Part shown: piece after piece, positions 3,415 to 31,822 of the stretch | Layout of the letters: the number at the start of each line of letters is the position of its first letter | Numbering within the stretch: position 1 is the stretch's first letter | Source: a virus | Virus genome (UHGV): UHGV-0209794 | Strand: one strand, 5' to 3' | DNA: 41,598 nt | Translations under genes and position numbers: made by a program | The notes under the pieces: model-generated | What the model saw: the letters and a program-made list of their open reading frames with translations, nothing else | Databases searched by the model: none | What the model was told of the DNA's origin: nothing

Positions 3415-4461
3415 ATGAAAAATACTGTGAATTTAAACAGTGTAAATTTAGTCAATGATGACTCACTCAGCTATATAAAAACACTTCCCGATAATTGTAT
3501 TGACTTAATCGCAACTGACCCGCCTTACTTTCAGGTGAAGTCTTGTAGTTGGGATAATCAGTGGGAAAACGTAACATCATATTTATCTTGGCTTGATGAA
3601 ATGCTTGCGGAATTTTGGCGAGTTTTAAAGCCTAACGGTAGCCTTTATATCTTTTGCGGTTCGAAACTAGCGTCAGATACAGAATTACTCGTTCGTGAAA
3701 GATTTAATATTCTAAGTCACATTGTATGGGCTAAACCATCAGGACCTTGGCGCAGGGCATGTAAAGCTGATTTACGCAGTTTCTTTCCAAGCACTGAAAG
3801 AATTTTATTTGCTGAACATTATCAAAGTCCATACAAGGGCAAAAGTAGTGCTTATCTTCAGCAATGCAAAGCGCTTAAAGAAAATGTATTTAAGCCTTTA
3901 ATTGAGTATTTTAAATCTGCACGTGAATCGTTAGGAATAACAGCAAAAGAAATAAAACAGGCCACAGGTAAACAAATGGCTTCACACTGGTTTAGTTACA
4001 GCCAATGGCAACTACCGAGTGAGTCTGACTACAAAAAACTGCAGGAGCTGTTTCATCGCGTAGCAAGTGAAAAGTTTAGTAGTAATCCTTTAAATCGTGA
4101 TCATACTGATTTGATAAAGGTGCAGGCTTCTCTTAGTCGAGAGTACCAAGAGCTTGCTGAACAATATCAATTATTGCGCCGTCCTTTTTCTGTCACCGTT
4201 GATGTTCCTTACACCGATGTGTGGACGTATCCACCTGTGCAATATTACGCAGGTAAACATCCTTGTGAAAAACCAGCTGAAATGATGGAACACATTATTC
4301 GCTCAAGCAGTCGCGAAGGTGATCTGGTTGCTGATTTTTTTATGGGGTCGGGTGCAACACTAAAGTCCGCATTAAAGTTAAATCGTCGAGTTCTTGGAGT
4401 TGAACTTGAGAAAGAGCGATTTGAACAAACAAGAGTGGAAATAAATAACATGAAGTCATAA
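3415..4461 (+). CDS. DNA methyltransferase, beta-class N6A/N4C (orphan)
   Basis: N-terminal DLIATDPPYF (motif IV) and C-terminal FFMGSGAT (motif I, FxGxG). The order IV then I indicates beta-class. 348 aa. Confidence 0.75.
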   Translation: MKNTVNLNSVNLVNDDSLSYIKTLPDNCIDLIATDPPYFQVKSCSWDNQWENVTSYLSWLDEMLAEFWRVLKPNGSLYIFCGSKLASDTELLVRERFNILSHIVWAKPSGPWRRACKADLRSFFPSTERILFAEHYQSPYKGKSSAYLQQCKALKENVFKPLIEYFKSARESLGITAKEIKQATGKQMASHWFSYSQWQLPSESDYKKLQELFHRVASEKFSSNPLNRDHTDLIKVQASLSREYQELAEQYQLLRRPFSVTVDVPYTDVWTYPPVQYYAGKHPCEKPAEMMEHIIRSSSREGDLVADFFMGSGATLKSALKLNRRVLGVELEKERFEQTRVEINNMKS

Positions 4462-5611: not shown

Positions 5612-6073
5612 ATGAAGCACTGGAAACTTTACATTGTCGTTGTGATGGTGGGGATTGTTGTTGGTGGTTGTGTACTGATTAATGCACAAACTAAAAGAAT
5701 TAACATACTGATAGAAAAGAACAAAGAACTTACTACAACACTCGAAGAACAAAAGGCTATCAATACTGAATATCAAGTGCGCATAGAGCGACTCAATCAA
5801 CTTGATACAAGACACACACAGGAGCTTGTTAATGCAAAGAATGAAATTAGTCGCTTGCGTGATCTTAGCGAGCGTAATCCTGAGCGGGTGTACATCAAAG
5901 CTGAGTGTCCAAAAAGCGCTACCACTTCCACCTCCAGCGTGGCTAATGCAACCACCGCCCGACCTACTGACACCGCTATCAGAAATTATTGGTTACTCAG
6001 AGAGCGAATAACACAGTCTGAGCAAATGATATTAGGGCTACAAGATTACATTAGGCAGGAGTGCGTAAACTAA
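5612..6073 (+). CDS. i-spanin (Rz-like)
   Basis: N-terminal TM (LYIVVVMVGIVVGGCVL), a coiled-coil periplasmic domain, and an embedded +1-frame lipoprotein ORF. Confidence 0.7.
   Translation: MKHWKLYIVVVMVGIVVGGCVLINAQTKRINILIEKNKELTTTLEEQKAINTEYQVRIERLNQLDTRHTQELVNAKNEISRLRDLSERNPERVYIKAECPKSATTSTSSVANATTARPTDTAIRNYWLLRERITQSEQMILGLQDYIRQECVN
5832..6011 (+). CDS. o-spanin (Rz1-like lipoprotein) embedded in Rz
   Basis: MQRMKLVACVILASVILSGC has a lipobox (LSGC), followed by a proline-rich mature part (LPLPPPAWLMQPPPDLL). It lies entirely inside Rz in another frame, with AGGAG 8 nt upstream of ATG 5832. Confidence 0.65.
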   Translation: MQRMKLVACVILASVILSGCTSKLSVQKALPLPPPAWLMQPPPDLLTPLSEIIGYSESE

Positions 6074-6549
6074 AGTTTATTTAATTTTTCTCTAATACGT
6101 TTTTTTATGGCTCTATATGAGCGCTGGTACTCGCGGGATTTAATTGCATCTCTACCATCAGCGCGTTTAGCACCATCGGGCAGTAAATTGTGCTCGATAT
6201 TAGATGCTCGTTCTGATTGTTCTGCTAAATCGAAATCTCTACGTTGTGAGCGCTCTGATCCAACTGCTAATTCTGTTGCTGTGGATAAATGGGAGTAATC
6301 AATTTTACCCTCATCAATAATTCGCTGTAATTTTTCTCTGTGTTTCTGGCGGTAGGCAACACCAGCTAGAGGTGTAGTGGCTGGGATATTAAATTTATCC
6401 CTATAATCACTCAGGGTCATATGATGAATTTTAGTGATGTGATTAGCGAGAAATGAAAAACGTTTCCCGCACTCCAGGCATTCAATTTTATCGTGAGCTA
6501 GATATTCTGCTAGCTCCTCGCGATTATTGATGCGTTTATTCGTCATCAC
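6070..6549 (-). CDS. Ros/MucR-family zinc-finger DNA-binding protein
   Basis: CLECGKRFSFLANHITKIHHMTLSDYRDKFNIPATTPLAGVAYRQ matches the Ros/MucR C2H2-like zinc-finger signature (CxxC...HxxxHH, MT..EYR.K). 159 aa. Confidence 0.6.
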   Translation of the reverse strand: MMTNKRINNREELAEYLAHDKIECLECGKRFSFLANHITKIHHMTLSDYRDKFNIPATTPLAGVAYRQKHREKLQRIIDEGKIDYSHLSTATELAVGSERSQRRDFDLAEQSERASNIEHNLLPDGAKRADGRDAIKSREYQRSYRAIKKRIREKLNKL

Positions 6550-7033
6550 TGCGACTCACAGTGTACCAATTGTTATCGTACATCAGGTAATTTTCATCGT
6601 CCCATGAGAATATTTCGTCAGTGTCGGTCGGCTCATTGTTACCAAATGTTTTTAGATCATCAATTTTGATTATGTCCTCAATTTTTTGAATATAATCATC
6701 ATCGGAGTTACGAATATAATCAGCTAATTCATTTAATGAGTTACATAGATCAGTGAGTGATTCGGCGTTATTTACAGCGTTAACTAATACATCTAATTCA
6801 GGGTTGTTAGTTTTCATAATATTGTTCTCAACGTTATAGATTGCTGTTTTAGTTCTATTTAGTTGTTCGTTTAACGCCTCAACAATACGATCTGTTGATG
6901 GCGCTCTAGCTGTTCCAGCAACAATGCGTCTGATAGTTCTGTCGCTCATATTCATCAGTTTTGACATTGGCGTTTGCCACTGGGTGCCGAAAATTAATCT
7001 ACCGGCTTGAATTAATTTTTCTCTATCGGTCAT
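6536..7033 (-). CDS. hypothetical protein with N-terminal HTH-like segment and acidic C-terminus
   Basis: 165 aa with SKLMNMSDRTIRRIVAGT (HTH-like) and a DE-rich C-terminal third. Overlaps the downstream gene by 14 nt, so operonic. Confidence 0.4.
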   Translation of the reverse strand: MTDREKLIQAGRLIFGTQWQTPMSKLMNMSDRTIRRIVAGTARAPSTDRIVEALNEQLNRTKTAIYNVENNIMKTNNPELDVLVNAVNNAESLTDLCNSLNELADYIRNSDDDYIQKIEDIIKIDDLKTFGNNEPTDTDEIFSWDDENYLMYDNNWYTVSRSDDE

Positions 7034-7072
7034 GCTGTCTCTCTTATTGCTCCCATTATCTCTAGGGGGTTG

Positions 7073-7456
7073 TTAAATGATTGGTGATAAATCTTCGTGA
7101 TGAACCCATGAGTTAGTTACACAGTCAAAATAAGGTTTTACTGATAACAGTTTGTACGCACTGGTGTTAGATATTTTCTCGCCGTGCATGTAGGCATAAC
7201 TGATGTTCCCAGTGTTATAAAACCCAATTTCTAATCCGAAAACGGCTTCTAATTTGTCGTAATTGATATACACACGACGTTTGCCGTAGTTTTCCCAAAC
7301 CGAGCAACCTAATTTAATTAACTTAGAGGTTGTTGATTCTACTGTGTGGTACAGGCTACGCAGGGCTAACATAAATGCGATGCGGTAGTCACCAACAACA
7401 GAAACTGTGCTTTTAGCGATTTTATGAGCTGATGTGAATAAAGCTGATTTGTTCAT
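7073..7456 (-). CDS. hypothetical protein
   Basis: 127-aa ORF, first gene of a three-gene minus-strand cassette between the lysis and packaging modules. Confidence 0.4.
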   Translation of the reverse strand: MNKSALFTSAHKIAKSTVSVVGDYRIAFMLALRSLYHTVESTTSKLIKLGCSVWENYGKRRVYINYDKLEAVFGLEIGFYNTGNISYAYMHGEKISNTSAYKLLSVKPYFDCVTNSWVHHEDLSPII

Positions 7457-7845
7457 TTTGAAACCCTCTGGTTATCGGTCGGGACCGTTCCCTTACCGTG
7501 ATTAAATAATATCACTGTCCTAATATTAGGTCAATAAATTTATTCGATATATTGTGATTTGAACCACAAATAGTTGCCTCACAATAGTGGGGGGGCCATA
7601 AGGCGTCGCATTGTCGCCGTCTCTTATGTTAGCCATGACCTGTTTTATTCTCAGCAGATAGCGCATAGTGAGAGTCAAAAACAATGAATACCGCCATTTT
7701 GTTATTTTTCGGTCATTATCAGCAACGTCAGCTGTAGGTAGAAGAAAGGGCGTGACAACCGGAGAGACGAGTACAATTCATAAGAGTCAATCACAAAGCC
7801 TATTTTAACGAATGGGCTTTTTAATAGGCTAAGGAGATAAACACA

Positions 7846-8856
7846 ATGGCAAAACCGGATTGGGGGATGCTACAACAACAGTTCCTCGCCGAACATGCTA
7901 TAACAGGAATATCCCCTAAAGAGTGGTGCGAACTAAAGGAACTAAACTACGCAACAGCACGACGATATATCAAAATATCCAGTGCGCAGAATGCGCAAAA
8001 AACTGCGCACAAGAAATTGCGCACTGCGCAGAAAAAAGAATGCGCAAAAGAGCCAATGCGCAAGAGTGATATACCCGATGCGCAGAGTAATGAATCCAGT
8101 AATGCGCATGATGATCAAAACACCTTTAGTCTGCGCAATTACGGGCTTACTGAGTTACAGGCTAAATTCGTTAATGAATACCTTATTGACCTAAATAGGA
8201 CTGCTGCATATAAGCGTGCTGGTGGTAAATGTGAAGGAAATACGGCATACGCAAGCGCAAGTCGGATGTATAGAAATGTTAAGGTTAATCGGGCAATCAC
8301 TGACGCTTTAGCAGAACGGGAACGCAGAACAGAGATAACCCAAGATGCCGTATTAAAAATATGGTGGGATATTGCAACGGCAGACGTTAACGAACTGACT
8401 GAATACCGTCGATTATGTTGCCGTCATTGCTGGGGCTTTGGTTTCAATTACCAGTGGCGTGATTCAATAGAGTTTGAAGATGCCATTAAAAAAGCGCTTA
8501 CAGCCAATAAACCTCCTCCACAAGATGTGGGCGGTTACGGTTACGATGAAACATTAGATCCAAATCCTGATTGCCCTCGTTGTAACGGTGCCGGTATTGG
8601 TCGTGCGTACTTTCATGATACGCGTGATTTAACAGGGCCAGCTCGTCGAGTATTTGCAGGAGTGAAAGAAGGTAAGTTTGGTGTCGAGGTTATCACTCGT
8701 AATCAAGATGAAGCGCTTAAGATGGTTGCACAGCATTTAGGTATGCTGAAGAACAAGACGGAGTTAACGGGTGCCGATGGTGGACCTATCAAAACAGAGA
8801 TAGCTAACTTGTCACCTCAAGAAGCATCTGACGCATATAAGCAAATCATGGGGTAA
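7846..8856 (+). CDS. terminase small subunit (Terminase_2-like) with long N-terminal extension
   Basis: LTELQAKFVNEYLIDLNRTAAYKRAGG...ASRMYRNVKVNRAI is typical of TerS. 336 aa is long for TerS. It lies directly upstream of terL. Confidence 0.7.
   Translation: MAKPDWGMLQQQFLAEHAITGISPKEWCELKELNYATARRYIKISSAQNAQKTAHKKLRTAQKKECAKEPMRKSDIPDAQSNESSNAHDDQNTFSLRNYGLTELQAKFVNEYLIDLNRTAAYKRAGGKCEGNTAYASASRMYRNVKVNRAITDALAERERRTEITQDAVLKIWWDIATADVNELTEYRRLCCRHCWGFGFNYQWRDSIEFEDAIKKALTANKPPPQDVGGYGYDETLDPNPDCPRCNGAGIGRAYFHDTRDLTGPARRVFAGVKEGKFGVEVITRNQDEALKMVAQHLGMLKNKTELTGADGGPIKTEIANLSPQEASDAYKQIMG
7983..8137. repeat. array of 10 copies of palindromic hexamer TGCGCA within terS (candidate pac site)
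   Basis: TGCGCA at 7983, 7993, 8005, 8018, 8024, 8040, 8056, 8079, 8103 and 8132, i.e. 10 copies in ~155 bp against about 1 per 4 kb expected by chance. Confidence 0.6.
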
Positions 8857-9063
8857 ATTGATAAAAATAGCGGTTTCATTGAAAAATTAGGCTATGCAAA
8901 ATCACACCTATTTTATGCACGTTTTATTCATTCTAATTAGCACTCATTTCAATAGATAACTTAGATAAATAGCGCTTACACATAGAAAATACACTCAGTT
9001 GATTTTCGGTAGGGCGTGTAAGCACGATTATGTTAAATAGATATTGCATTAAAGAAATTTACT

Positions 9064-10668
9064 ATGCCAATCCCATTCCCGTTTGATTTTAAAAATCCTG
9101 ACTACCCGCAGGTATTTGAATGGCGAATGGAACGATTAACACGAATTCGCCAAAATCCAGAAGCTATACCAGCACTCAACGCTTATTACAAAGATAATCC
9201 AGCTCAATTTATTATTGATTGGGGTATGACGTATGACCCACGAAACCCTGAGAGAGGATTACCGTCATATATCCCATTTTTATTATTCCCTCGACAAGAG
9301 GAATGGATTGAATGGTTTATCGAACGATGGAAAGGGCAAGAGCCTGGTATTACAGAAAAGACGCGTGATATGGGTATGAGTTGGCTAACGGTCGGCTTAT
9401 CTTGCACTGTATGTAATTTCAATCGTGGTATTAGTGTCGGCATAGGTAGTCGTAAAGAAGAGTATGTCGATAAAATCGGGGTACCTAAATCACTGTTAGA
9501 GAAAGCCCGTATCTTCATGTCTTATCTGCCGGCTGAATTTCGTTTTGGTTGGAATAGAAACAAAGACGCACCACACATGAGAATAAAATTTCCTCATACT
9601 GACTCAATCATATCGGGTGAGTGTGGTGATGGTATTGGGCGAGGGGATCGCGTAAGTTTTTATATTGTTGATGAGTCCGCTTTCCTCGAACGGCCATCTC
9701 TTATTGACGCTTCTTTATCAGCCACAACTAACTGCAGACAAGATATTTCAACGCCAAATGGAAATGCTAATAGCTTCGCTATCCGTAGGCATAGCGGAAA
9801 AATACCAGTATTTACATTCCACTGGAGAGAAGATCCAAGGAAAGACCAAGCATGGTACGACAAGCAGGTTGAAGTTTTAGATCCCGTTACAGTCGCTCAA
9901 GAAATAGATATAGATTACAACGCATCCGTTGAAGGGGTGATTATTCCTTCTGCATGGATACAGTCTGCAATAGACGCACATATCAAGTTGGGAATTGAAC
10001 CAACAGGTAAGCGCCTTGGTGCTCTTGACGTAGCTGACGAAGGTATAGATAAAAATGCCTTTGTATCAGGTAAAGGAATATTGGTAGATGCTTGTGAAGA
10101 GTGGAGTGGGAAAGGTGCTGATATCTACCAAACCGTGGTTAAGGCAATCAATTTAGCCAGTGATTATGGTTGTAGTGAGGTTCTATATGATGCTGATGGT
10201 ATTGGTGCCGGTTGTCGTGGTGATTCAAGACAAGTCAATGAAGAACGGAAGTTAGCTGGTTTAAATCCTGTTACCTTTTCTGCTTACAAAGGAAGTTCTG
10301 GTGTACTAAATCCGGATAAGGTTTTAATGAAAGATGCCAGCGGTAGAAATATTACGAATAAGGACTTTTTCCAAAACTTTAAATCTCAATCTTGGTGGCA
10401 TTTGCGGACATTGTTTTTAAATACCCATAGAGCGGTTAATGGTATGAAATATGATCCTGATGAGATTATTTCGTTATCTTCAAAAATGTCATCTTTATCG
10501 AGATTAACTTCCGAACTCTGCCAGCCAACGTACACAAAAAACTCAGCAGGTAAAATCGTCGTTGATAAAAAACCTAACGGTGCTAAGTCTCCCAACTGCG
10601 CTGATGGCTTAGTCATTCTTAAATCTCCTGAGAAAAGAAGCGGTAGTTTCTTCACAACTAAGAGGTAA
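9064..10668 (+). CDS. terminase large subunit
   Basis: 534 aa with a Walker-B-like FYIVDESAF and a C-terminal nuclease-like region. Position after terS. Confidence 0.75.
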
Positions 10669-10672
10669 TTCT

Positions 10673-12175
10673 ATGTGGTGGCCGTTTAAGAGGCGAAAAA
10701 CAGAACCACTCGCACCGGTTAAACGGTCAGCATTCACAACTGACTTATATCCTGCGCTGGCGCGAGAACAGGGCTTTGATGGGATTAATTTACCCCAACC
10801 CACAATTGCAGGTGTTGCGATGGATAGCATTGATAGCTATGTGCCCTCATTTAAAGGTGAGCAGGTTTACGGTGTGCCGGAGTCACAGGCCTCATGGTAT
10901 GCCTCACAAATGTTTATCGGCAACAATATGTGTGCGGTTATCGCTAAACACTGGCTGGTGGATAAAGCCTGCAATATGCCAGCTCGTGATGCGATACGTC
11001 AGGGATATGATATTGATTGTGATAACGATGATGATCGCGCTATCAGTAAAAAGCTCCGTAAACGTGATAAAAAATACCGTATTACACACCAACTGAAAGA
11101 GCTGGTTCATTTTGGGAGAGTATACGGCGGTCGCTTAGCATTATTCGTTGTGGAGACATCAAACCCGAAAGAGTGGTACGAAAACCCGTTTAATATCGAT
11201 GGTGTGACTAAAGGGATGTATAAAGGTATTAAACAGATTGATCCACAATGGGTAACGGCCGATTTAACGGATTCCAATGTTCAAGATCCTGCCAGCATGG
11301 ATTTCTACGAGCCGACCTATTATGTGATTGGTGGGCGTAAGTATCACAAGTCTCACTTTATTAAGTTTGTGCCGTTTCCTGTACCTAACGTGCTTAAGCC
11401 AATGTACAACTACTTTGGCGTATCAGTGCCAGAACGTATTTATGAGCGTGTCTACGCTTCAGAACGTACCGCCAATGAAGCACCACAACTGGCAATGACT
11501 AAGCGTTTGCTTACGATGGGGATTGCAGATCCAGAAAGCGCTGATAAGGATATTATTCGCGAAAATATGCTTTATTTTATGGAGATGCGCGATAACTATG
11601 GTGTGCAAATGACGGGCAGTGAAGATACGGTTCAACAGTTCGACACCTCATTAGCGGATTTAGACGCCACGATTATGACGCAATATCAGCTGGTGGCATC
11701 GGCTTCAAATGTACCAGCAACAAAACTGCTAGGTACTACCCCGAAAGGCTTTAATTCAACGGGTGAATACGAAGAAGCCAATTACCGCGAAGAGCTTGAA
11801 AGTATCCAATCAAACGACCTTGAAGAGCTATTGCAGCGCCATTACGACATGCTAATGCGTAGCGATGGTTTACCTGTGACAGAAATCTCTATCACATGGG
11901 CTCCACTTGATAGCCCGACGGCTGTTGAGAGTGCGGATATTGAACTGAAAGAAGCGCAGACCGATGTGGCACTGGCTTCGACTGGTGCGATAGATGGGTT
12001 AGATATCCGTAAAAAACTGGCCAGCAATAAAGCGTCTAGCTATTACGGCATTGAAGTGAACGAGGCAGATTATGTCGAGGCGAATACGAGTACGAACGAA
12101 GCGAGCACAATGGGCAACCTCTCGCCAAGCAGTAATGAAAGGGAAGCCCCTGCAGTATTCAGTCGCCCCAGCTAG
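10673..12175 (+). CDS. portal protein (SPP1 gp6-like by synteny)
   Basis: 500 aa, directly after terL and before the MuF-like gene. Confidence 0.55.
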   Translation: MWWPFKRRKTEPLAPVKRSAFTTDLYPALAREQGFDGINLPQPTIAGVAMDSIDSYVPSFKGEQVYGVPESQASWYASQMFIGNNMCAVIAKHWLVDKACNMPARDAIRQGYDIDCDNDDDRAISKKLRKRDKKYRITHQLKELVHFGRVYGGRLALFVVETSNPKEWYENPFNIDGVTKGMYKGIKQIDPQWVTADLTDSNVQDPASMDFYEPTYYVIGGRKYHKSHFIKFVPFPVPNVLKPMYNYFGVSVPERIYERVYASERTANEAPQLAMTKRLLTMGIADPESADKDIIRENMLYFMEMRDNYGVQMTGSEDTVQQFDTSLADLDATIMTQYQLVASASNVPATKLLGTTPKGFNSTGEYEEANYREELESIQSNDLEELLQRHYDMLMRSDGLPVTEISITWAPLDSPTAVESADIELKEAQTDVALASTGAIDGLDIRKKLASNKASSYYGIEVNEADYVEANTSTNEASTMGNLSPSSNEREAPAVFSRPS

Positions 12176-30350: not shown

Positions 30351-30421
30351 GTTTTTACTGCTCTTAAAATACCTAATGTGTGAGCTTTAAATTTAATGTG
30401 TTGAAATACCGGAGTATTTCA

Positions 30422-31822
30422 ATGTCAAATATAGCAACACAAAAGCAAAAAACACCAGATAATGATGAATATACAGACGCTCTTAGTCGTTGGGAGTCAT
30501 GTAAGCCACCTTACACAAGTACACACATAAGAATCTGTGTTACTGCTGTCAAAACCATTTTAAAGCATATCAATAAACCACGTCGCTCTAAATATGAAAA
30601 AGAGCACTACTTGCGTATTGATTTTAGTAAGGCGGGTAAGGTTACCATATACGCGGAATATCCTAAACACATGGATATAAAAGGCCAGAAATTAGGGGAA
30701 TGGCCAGAACTATCATTACCAATAGCAAGAGAGAAAGCGAAAGCATTAGCTGAAGAAGGGCTAAGAGCTGAATCTGTTCATCAACTATTAGATCTTTATG
30801 AAAAAGATTTAGCAGGGAAAGTCGAACGCTCAAAGTTAAGTGAAAATAGTTTTTATACTTATCGTTGCAGAGTAAAACAACTGAAGCTAACGTTCGGATC
30901 GCGTGAAGTTTTTAGTGATGTGAAATACTCACGATTAATAGAAATATTGGATAATTGGATACAAACAAAATCAAATAATCATGCATTAGAGTTATTTGCT
31001 GAGATGCGCCGATTTTGGAAATATGCATCCCCCATTTATTCTAATGGAAGAAATATTGCGTCGAGCATTCCTGATGATTATGTGTCGTCACGGGTGCAGA
31101 AACCCATGCCAACGAAACGATATACTGATATTGAGTCCATTGCCACCTTATGGATGAACGTTGCTTCAAGCACCTCTGTGCATCAAAAAAATGCAGTTAG
31201 ATATATGATCCTCACTGGAGTTAGACCAATCAATGTTGTCAATTTGAAGTGGGAATATGTTGATTTAGATAACTTAGAAATAACTTATCCAGCTGGTTTA
31301 ATTGGTATGCGTGGTGCAATGAAAACTCAAAAAGAGTTTAGAGTGCCAATTACAAAGGCAATGAAAAGCTTACTCGAGGAACAATTAGCTTGGAAAAATT
31401 CCACTGTTAATTGCAATAAAGAATATGTTTTCCTACAACCTAGAGATCCACAATTAGCGTTTTCTAAACGTTCATTGGATAAATTAGTTAAAACATATAG
31501 CCCTGAAGGGGCGGTGAAGGGTGTAGTGCATGAGGGAACGGTGAAGGGAAAGTCCGGAGCATTTAATACTATGTGCCGTAAGTTTTTTAAAAGTAATATA
31601 ATTGCACAAATGCGTCAAAAAGGCTTTTCACGTTCTGATACTAAAGAAATTAGCATGCTATGTTTACATCACTCTGATAAAAGTGAAGATCCAATGGCTG
31701 AACATTATGACTTTTCTGATGAGATACTGCAGGAAGAGATAGCGCTAAAGCGTCAAGCATTTGAGGCACATGAAAATAGTATCTTGACTCAAGTAGCGCT
31801 ATTACGTCGTAAACTTAGTTAA
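30422..31822 (+). CDS. tyrosine-type integrase (phage integrase family, atypical C-terminal motifs)
   Basis: LTGVRPINVVNLKWEYVDLD (box I Arg) and FRVPITKAM, with Tyr near the C-terminus (EHYDF). Start taken at ATG 30422, which has GGAG 7 nt upstream; the ORF track starts at 30380. Confidence 0.6.
   Translation: MSNIATQKQKTPDNDEYTDALSRWESCKPPYTSTHIRICVTAVKTILKHINKPRRSKYEKEHYLRIDFSKAGKVTIYAEYPKHMDIKGQKLGEWPELSLPIAREKAKALAEEGLRAESVHQLLDLYEKDLAGKVERSKLSENSFYTYRCRVKQLKLTFGSREVFSDVKYSRLIEILDNWIQTKSNNHALELFAEMRRFWKYASPIYSNGRNIASSIPDDYVSSRVQKPMPTKRYTDIESIATLWMNVASSTSVHQKNAVRYMILTGVRPINVVNLKWEYVDLDNLEITYPAGLIGMRGAMKTQKEFRVPITKAMKSLLEEQLAWKNSTVNCNKEYVFLQPRDPQLAFSKRSLDKLVKTYSPEGAVKGVVHEGTVKGKSGAFNTMCRKFFKSNIIAQMRQKGFSRSDTKEISMLCLHHSDKSEDPMAEHYDFSDEILQEEIALKRQAFEAHENSILTQVALLRRKLS

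Follow-up and report, generated by a model that had tools for sequence, protein, structure and literature searches.

An array of TGCGCA hexamers behind a PacA-like helix-turn-helix in the small-terminase gene of a lambdoid phage: a probable relative of the P1 pac site

The selection of viral DNA by small terminases (TerS) is poorly understood, and most pac sites are either unknown or single ill-defined sequences. In SPP1 and SF6, the pac site (pacL, pacC and pacR) overlaps terS and contains repeated short boxes that are bound by a ring-shaped oligomer of the small terminase G1P, and packaging is headful. In lambda, the cosB site, which consists of the R1-R3 elements and a site for integration host factor (IHF), is bound by the winged helix-turn-helix (HTH) of gpNu1. 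In this study, we examine the terS gene of a Proteus phage, the 41,598-bp virus genome UHGV-0209794 (the window, by which we mean the whole stretch of DNA that was analyzed), in which ten copies of the palindrome TGCGCA are packed behind the sequence encoding an N-terminal HTH. Comparison with related sequences leads us to propose, with a probability of about three in four, that this array is the recognition part of the phage's pac site, read by the HTH of TerS, and that it is a relative of the classic pac site of phage P1 with a different repeated word.

The window's locus shares with the SPP1/SF6 system a TerS core of the Terminase_2 type, a Pfam family that we take to be that of SPP1 G1P, and a repeat-bearing site that overlaps terS. 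To our knowledge, SPP1 G1P does not carry an additional N-terminal HTH of the PacA kind, and the sequence and arrangement of its boxes are different. Lambda cosB is similar in that an oligomeric small terminase uses its N-terminal HTH to read several short repeats and so positions the large subunit; unlike the window's site, cosB belongs to a cos system with precise nicking and lies outside coding sequence, and no homology is claimed. Placement of pac inside the small-terminase gene is also known from headful phages of the P22 and Sf6 type. P22 has a single asymmetric site of ~17-22 bp, unlike the hexamer array considered here. Wobble mutants of P22 pac, within gene 3, exemplify this placement (PMC11260489). 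Published work was considered as direct experimental support and set aside. The prophage Gally of Escherichia coli LF82 has a coverage step, and thus a mapped pac, inside terS (PMC9928086), but its TerS is a 140-aa protein of the Sf6/P22 type without the HTH module; Morganella phage Mecenats66 and the same study of P22, with ES18 and Det7 (PMC11260489), concern other terminase types.

The closest described system is that of P1. The annotated P1 pacA gene carries TGATC(A/G) at nt 194, 201, 213 and 228 and at nt 324, 336 and 347 (with a further copy at 375), or 7(+1) copies, and the annotated IHF site and mapped cleavage points lie between these two hexamer clusters (nt 194-233 and 324-352). Destroying the hexamers by synonymous mutation lowers the titre ~9-fold, and the hexamer carries the GATC recognized by Dam, pac cleavage being methylation-controlled (PMC10028697). 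The sole characterized member of the domain family thus uses a hexamer array in its own gene, behind its HTH, as pac. The window's array is like that of P1 in three respects: it lies inside the small-terminase gene directly downstream of the sequence for a homologous N-terminal HTH, it comprises many copies of one hexanucleotide (ten TGCGCA in the window, 7(+1) TGATC(A/G) in P1), and the hexamers of both are palindromes of the form TG..CA.

The window contains 18 copies of TGCGCA, 10 of which, all exact, lie within 155 bp (7983-8137; individual starts in Table 1) at start-to-start spacings of 9, 12, 14, 7, 16, 16, 22, 24 and 29. An earlier note on this DNA, made from the sequence alone, had reported ten copies in about 155 bp against roughly one per 4 kb expected by chance. 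All ten were located and form the densest hexamer cluster of the window, the runner-up hexamer reaching 5 copies, and the chance estimate was roughly right: the 8 copies outside the array correspond to about one per 5 kb, and the flanks of related loci carry 0.33 per kb. In 100 first-order Markov simulations of the window, no hexamer reached more than 4 copies per 155 bp. Copies with one mismatch were not found inside the array. Avoidance of TGCGCA elsewhere in the genome was also considered and rejected, the 8 outside copies not differing significantly from a whole-window shuffle expectation of ~12 +/- 3. The array starts 6 nt past codon 44 of terS, in the sequence that encodes the stretch between the N-terminal extension and the Terminase_2 domain (aa 101-307), in agreement with the location given earlier.

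TerS aa 1-44 constitute a predicted three-helix HTH that is, by profile comparison, homologous to the N terminus of P1 PacA. Alignment of nine window-type domains with three PacA N termini by hhalign gave a probability of 98.2% (E 2.9e-14, 45 columns), and BLASTP matched the TerS N terminus to P1 PacA residues 3-40 at E 0.002, with the common motif TARRY(I/L). PHROG 1711, a family hit by P1 PacA at 4e-202 and by D6 PacA at 3e-183, was matched by the window's TerS N terminus at E 5e-6, and the beginning of phage D6 PacA gave a weak tblastn match (E 0.7 in a search of 2.3 Gb). An AlphaFold2 (AF2) model of TerS built with 53 homologues has N-terminal helices at residues 6-20, 24-30 and 35-41, with a per-residue confidence score (pLDDT) of ~67-79. 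The prediction of the earlier note that the array is a pac site by analogy with P1 is therefore supported by sequence comparison, and the analogy rests on homology between TerS aa 1-44 and the PacA N terminus.

The PacA-like domain is also present on the small terminases found in Klebsiella, E. coli, Yersinia, Providencia, Aeromonas and Stx-converting phages. A phmmer search of 1.84 billion representatives returned 234 clusters with the domain at E <= 1e-3, and most of the matches listed begin at residue 1; a 46-aa domain query against a 5.8-billion-protein database returned 18 fragments only. The module was seen only on small terminases and was fused to different bodies. Judged by family matches, the TerS bodies to which it is joined are of at least two unrelated kinds, the Terminase_2/phrog_51 type and the phrog_370 type. 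The latter appears, from its profile matches, to be related to PacA: P1 and D6 PacA both match phrog_370, D6 PacA over most of its length (E 4e-8), and D6 PacA also matches phrog_51 (8e-5).

Nearly the whole stretch encoded by the array (aa 46-98) is predicted to be disordered, with pLDDT below 50 over aa 45-91. The AF2 model of full-length TerS was poor (mean pLDDT 55) and was used only for the N-terminal domain and the linker disorder. The linker peptides differ among homologues and are simple in composition, rich in Ala, Gln and Lys. A functionless origin of the array, as a product of slippage or of a low-complexity linker of this kind, would be in keeping with a disordered, compositionally simple peptide and with the decay of single copies in some relatives. 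The codon phases are at odds with it, six copies lying in phase 3, three in phase 2 and one in phase 1. When the array-encoded peptide (aa 46-98) was re-encoded with the phage's own codon usage, 0.98 +/- 0.93 copies of TGCGCA were obtained, and none of the 20,000 trials gave more than 5. The use of all three phases, together with the expectation of only about one copy, makes the repeat a feature of the DNA and not of the peptide, and we reject an origin as a peptide repeat or low-complexity sequence. The proposal that the array accounts for the odd peptide and for the alternative-frame open reading frame (ORF) at 7982-8194 holds as well, on the evidence of the synonymous null, the linker disorder and the ORF overlap; this ORF and two others, at 7923-8069 (+) and 7942-8118 (-), exist because the palindromic repeat is free of stop codons.

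The spacing of the copies is irregular, unlike that of the periodic, single-phase tandem repeats recovered in the control scan described below. Selection on the hexamers themselves was assessed within the clade to which the window belongs, represented by 22 distinct sequences. The minor-allele fraction was 0.021 in hexamer columns versus 0.084 in spacer columns, four times less, and 17 of 60 hexamer columns were variable versus 45 of 95 spacer columns. Each copy was intact in 14-22 of the 22 sequences, and copy 10 in 22/22, a pattern that would be expected of redundant but selected sites. Distant lineages, moreover, maintain arrays of the same word that cannot be aligned with one another. In the Aeromonas-type relatives, the HTH is 58-64% identical, the body is of the phrog_370 type and the linkers are unrelated, and the arrays hold 5-7 TGCGCA at quite different spacings that are non-alignable to those of the window. 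The earlier suggestion to check whether the array is conserved in relatives whose TerS is encoded by a different sequence was followed, with a positive result: relatives in Aeromonas, Klebsiella and E. coli keep 4-9 TGCGCA in the same place, with different linkers, different spacings and even a different TerS body. We therefore regard a functionless array as extremely unlikely.

The word carried by the array follows the type of HTH in front of it. Hexamers were counted within 250 nt past the domain in 88 loci with the helix motif ..A[R/K]RY.., drawn from phage records and IMG/VR. The 70 loci with ..ARRY(I/L)K, the R-type to which the window belongs, carry 3-10 copies of TGCGCA (mean 6.8) and a mean of 0.04 TGCGAA/TTCGCA; in the 18 loci with ..AKRYIK, the K-type, TGCGAA/TTCGCA is present in 4-8 copies (mean 5.6) and TGCGCA at a mean of 0.39. 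A TerS of the K-type is found, for example, in Providencia phage PSTCR3. The flank background per kb is 0.33 for TGCGCA and 0.42 for TGCGAA/TTCGCA. R-type relatives keep the proximal spacings 9, 12, 14 and 7, and 16 comes next in about two-thirds of the arrays. Further subtypes have further words. Stx phages (..ARTRIK) have four GATCAT behind the domain, all in the same orientation and each containing a Dam site, which on the opposite strand read as TGATC(G/A), the P1 word. A PacA homologue on a Xenorhabdus megaplasmid (..ARRYLR) has three TGATCA directly behind the HTH and more ~150 nt on, and D6-like PacAs have inverted TGATCC/GGATCA. In a divergent subtype, ..SDTAIRKAAKKDGW.. ('SDTAIRKAAKK'; L092 1640-1700, L094-L097 and L098-L101), the domain is followed by five GCGAAC/GTTCGC, two one way and then three in the opposite direction, and GC-rich relatives of this subtype have GTGCGC/GCGCAC instead. 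Across the module, the proposed target words are thus TGATCR, TGCGCA, TGCGAA and GCGAAC. Every HTH subtype examined but one has its own subtype-specific hexamer array behind the domain.

Individual loci in this set show some peculiarities. In Escherichia phage phi349 (L007, 2630-2760), four GATCAT follow the domain at once and two TGCGCA come ~70 bp downstream. The terS ORF of a Stx2a phage (L010, 2630-2680) stops after 59 aa, just beyond the array. Two IMG/VR loci whose N-terminal domain is that of the window (L012 and L013) have terS ORFs of only 95 and 84 aa, which end in or just past the array; their shortness suggests frameshifts in the repeat region, through prophage decay or assembly error. 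The partner TerL (large terminase) of L092 is of the Terminase_6 type.

The converse scan of IMG/VR started from the hexamer, with three TGCGCA spaced 1-12 nt as the query, and returned at least 120 loci, in which the domain was sought with a custom hidden Markov model. Among the 120 clusters listed, 74 were preceded by the HTH, with a median of 3 nt from the HTH end to the array. The listed clusters include 77 dense arrays (at least 5 copies), of which 58 were HTH-linked, all of them multi-phase, and 19 were not. Of these 19, 11 were periodic one-frame tandem repeats (collagen-like, DAQVYG, AAHDAART, MRKNS and similar), 3 were cut by contig ends, 1 of these being clearly a truncated module, and only 5 were irregular arrays in other contexts (L137, L149, L168, L207 and L221). 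Among the clusters listed, TGCGCA arrays that are dense, irregular and multi-phase are thus largely a property of the TerS-HTH module. The five irregular arrays may be operators or iterons of other proteins. In L207 (6780-6940), two clusters of GGTGCGCACCC-like sites lie upstream of an ORF that, judged by its translation alone, looks like a ParB-like/methyltransferase fusion.

The same five loci, in which no TerS HTH was detected near the array, also bear on the idea that a different protein binds the window's hexamers, such as a host factor, the upstream ROS/MucR-like regulator or a phage methyltransferase, and that the adjacency of the HTH is coincidental. Genes for a ROS/MucR-like protein and for two methyltransferases are indeed present in the window. 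From Aeromonas to Klebsiella and Proteus, however, and whatever the neighboring genes, the array follows the HTH subtype, and among the listed clusters the HTH-linked arrays begin almost immediately past the domain. Binding by such a protein is accordingly judged very improbable.

Both hexamer orientations occur in the K-type arrays, a property that would be expected if the array acted as RNA or single-stranded DNA, with hexamers pairing in the terS mRNA so as to control its translation or stability and with the K-type preserving the pairing through TGCGAA and TTCGCA. The minimum free energy of 7975-8145, -53 kcal/mol against -39.6 +/- 4.0 for shuffles (z = -3.35), points the same way, but a z-score of this kind is expected anyway because palindromic hexamers fold well in whatever set they occur. 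In the K-type, forward copies are more numerous than reverse ones (FFFR, FFFFR), and most of the reverse copies abut a forward copy without a loop (TGCGAATTCGCA), so that no hairpin can form within the pair, which instead resembles a dyad site for a protein on duplex DNA. The four Stx hexamers all run in one direction, no Rfam family matched 7400-8500, and the P1 hexamers act as duplex, methylatable DNA (PMC10028697). A role as a folded nucleic acid is thus a very unlikely explanation of the array.

The reading of the array as a pac site is supported by homology and by this broad comparison of sequences. In the mechanism that we propose, the part of terS that encodes the disordered linker, right behind the HTH, carries the hexamers, and several HTHs of one TerS oligomer would bind several hexamers at once. 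The bound array would mark concatemeric phage DNA, TerL would cut nearby, and the cut would begin a series of headful packaging events. We infer the binding of the hexamers by the HTH, the start of cleavage and packaging at this locus, and the direction of packaging. As the reader domain and its target lie within ~300 bp, they would be inherited and exchanged together, as a packaging-specificity cassette. The fuller proposal, that HTH and array form a portable cassette of ~300 bp that sits on at least two unrelated bodies and whose word has been reprogrammed repeatedly, perhaps in one case or more through R39K alone with a change of C5 to A5 in every hexamer, is tentative and could nearly as well be right as wrong.

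A number of observations weigh against reading the array as a P1-like pac site recognized by the TerS HTH, and they concern the extent of the recognized site, the basis of its specificity and its likeness to P1. The first come from natural chimeras. L035 (2357-2780) and L093 (1501-1920) combine a K-type helix 3, and TGCGAA/TTCGCA in place of copies 1-5, with a window-type TerS body. At the positions of copies 6 and 7, both are unconverted, of the body type and mostly decayed, and distal TGCGCA copies are kept in spite of the K-type HTH, in L093 at the positions corresponding to 8079, 8103 and 8132 and in L035 at the latter two of these. The TerS HTH, then, need not read every one of the ten copies, and by these alignments only copies 1-5 are demonstrably co-transferred with helix 3. 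The core recognition element is provisionally taken to be the proximal cluster (7983-8062). The distal copies may be auxiliary sites or part of the TerS-body side of the mosaic; copy 10 (8132) codes for the conserved L-R-N in LRNYGL, where the Terminase_2 domain starts.

The failure of the distal copies, and of the positions of copies 6 and 7, to track the HTH type would be less surprising if the TerS HTH bound the array for autoregulation, repressing or roadblocking transcription of terS and the late operon, or translation, with the pac cut specified elsewhere, for example by the DNA-binding region of Terminase_2. A site in the regulator's own gene is typical of autoregulatory loops, and the Terminase_2 domain provides a second potential DNA-binding module in TerS. 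In P1, however, the sole homologue that has been studied, the equivalent hexamers are needed for pac cleavage and packaging, and the confinement of the module to small terminases, with different bodies, also argues against a regulatory role. We consider autoregulation unlikely.

The second group of observations concerns residue 39. R39 occurs with TGCGCA and K39 with TGCGAA in perfect association across the 88 loci, and this residue is the sole consistent helix-3 difference between the R- and K-types, pairing with the sole hexamer base that differs (position 5). A neighbor-joining tree built from the domain DNA without codon 39 requires no fewer than 5 R/K changes, the hexamer type following every time. 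Against direct readout, codon 39 lies only ~20 nt from the array, and recombination has its junctions a short way upstream of helix 3. The sequences of L067 (R) and L075 (K) hardly differ as far as about codon 35, after which every codon has diverged, and between L035 and the window the swapped patch comprises helix 3 and the first five hexamers, similarity resuming beyond. Helix 3 and the array thus move as one block, and linkage alone could yield the association between R/K and C/A. The covariation was accordingly downgraded as proof of direct readout. P1 and Xenorhabdus, in addition, have the ARRYL helix and yet the word TGATCA, so that helix 3 alone does not set the specificity and other residues contribute. 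That residue 39 reads hexamer position 5 directly is plausible from the covariation, but we stop short of favoring it.

The third group consists of differences from P1. The word TGCGCA contains no GATC and offers no obvious methylation switch, the only GATC near the array being at 8113, between copies. The P1 hexamers are grouped as 4 + 3 copies with ~90 bp between them, whereas those of the window are arranged as 7+3 without a hexamer-free cleavage region, and the only IHF-like sequence near the array is a one-mismatch match at 8173-8185, outside it. The window's TerS body is Terminase_2 and not PacA, and its TerL is not PacB; BLASTP comparisons of the TerS core with the PacA body (E 0.62) and of TerL with PacB (E 0.24) gave no similarity. 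The site therefore departs from a strict P1-type pac on three defining features: the Dam hexamers, the bipartite layout and the PacA body with PacB. The phages differ as well, P1 being a 94-kb plasmid prophage and the window a 41.6-kb lambdoid temperate phage. One distant member of the domain family (L279) has no obvious array, and no open-access paper was found on TGCGCA/TGCGAA arrays in terS or on a PacA-like module on lambdoid terminases, the subscription literature being outside the search.

If the array is the recognition part of pac, the sequence by itself is enough to identify both the reader domain and the repeats that it targets, in natural variants of specificity, and TerS-pac recognition becomes directly testable. 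Prediction of pac would be possible for hundreds of prophages in Proteus, Providencia, Morganella, Klebsiella, E. coli (including Stx phages), Yersinia and Aeromonas. The array words may also explain pseudo-pac sites of hosts and plasmids in the generalized or lateral transduction of virulence and resistance genes, and they would provide parts for engineering the packaging specificity of transducing particles, as has already been done with P1 pac. Should R39K with C5 to A5 prove true, pac selection would have a natural protein-DNA recognition code of a simple kind.

Table 1. Coordinates of terS, the hexamer array and adjacent features in the window
Feature	Position	Strand	Basis or remark
terS, small terminase, 336 aa	7846..8856	+	AGGAG ribosome-binding site; N-terminal HTH, disordered linker, Terminase_2 core with Cys4 insert
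PacA-like helix-turn-helix coding sequence, aa 1-44	7846..7977	+	AF2 helices, hhalign, PHROG 1711
HTH third helix, aa 35-41 YATARRY; presumed recognition helix	7948..7968	+	AF2
Codon 39 (CGA, Arg) in third helix	7960-7962	+	
Linker-coding segment carrying the array, aa 45-100	7978..8145	+	low pLDDT
Proximal array, seven TGCGCA (7983, 7992, 8004, 8018, 8025, 8041, 8057)	7983..8062	.	proposed core recognition element of pac for the TerS HTH
Distal TGCGCA copies (8079, 8103, 8132), widely spaced	8079..8137	.	may be auxiliary sites or part of the TerS-body side
Alternative-frame ORF, 70 aa	7982..8194	+	overlaps terS; artefact
Alternative-frame ORFs overlapping terS	7923-8069; 7942-8118	+; -	artefacts
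Terminase_2 core domain, aa 101-307, with CCRHC...CPRC insert	8146..8766	+	Pfam
terL, large terminase, presumed nuclease/motor cutting near the array	9064..10668	+	phrog_2 E 1e-22
Portal protein	10673..12175	+	Pfam Phage_portal_3 E 9e-91

The TerS protein is 99% identical to Proteus mirabilis TerS P0019, and its family is common in Proteus, Providencia and Morganella. It matches phrog_51 at E 1e-67, and its core matches Pfam Terminase_2 (PF03592) at E 3.7e-27, with 96.1 bits against a gathering cut-off of 26.1. Within this core, aa 189-248 (8410-8590) hold a four-cysteine insert, CCRHC ... CPRC, in which the Cys columns are invariant; by its sequence the insert looks like a zinc ribbon, and AF2 confidence is low there. 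Between terS and terL is a gap of 207 nt (8857-9063) that contains no ORF of at least 40 aa, and in L092 the corresponding interval holds a gene of 81 aa.

TerL had no match in Pfam and NCBIfam. In tblastn searches, its distant matches included HK620, CUS-3 and APSE, which are presumably P22-like headful phages, at ~31-35% identity over the C-terminal 230 aa only, and its nearer relatives were Bordetella IFTN9 and BcepB1A-like. As a pointer to headful packaging, these TerL relationships are weak. No terminal repeat was found in the 41,598-bp window, and a genome in vegetative order without terminal repeats is compatible with headful packaging.

PHROG and Pfam scans indicate a complete lambdoid temperate phage genome in vegetative gene order. 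Its first part comprises a methyltransferase, NinB, Q, a second methyltransferase, the lysis genes, a three-gene block on the minus strand, terS, terL and portal; head and tail genes follow, and then integrase, Gam/exonuclease, CI, CII, O-like, DnaC and DnaB. The integrase (30380-31822) comes after the tail genes, and attP should therefore lie at ~28.8-30.4 kb. A megablast comparison of window positions 9000-33000 with the phage collection gave no match and hence no close relative. The two DNA methyltransferases (246-1049 and 3415-4461) include one of the D12 class, N6-adenine-specific and Dam-like, and one of the beta class (N6/N4). The minus-strand block (6070-7456) stands between the lysis genes and terS and contains the ROS/MucR-like zinc-finger regulator (6070-6549), together with two ORFs whose PHROG matches were no more than marginal and fell on families of unknown function; the block resembles a moron that was inserted in the late operon.

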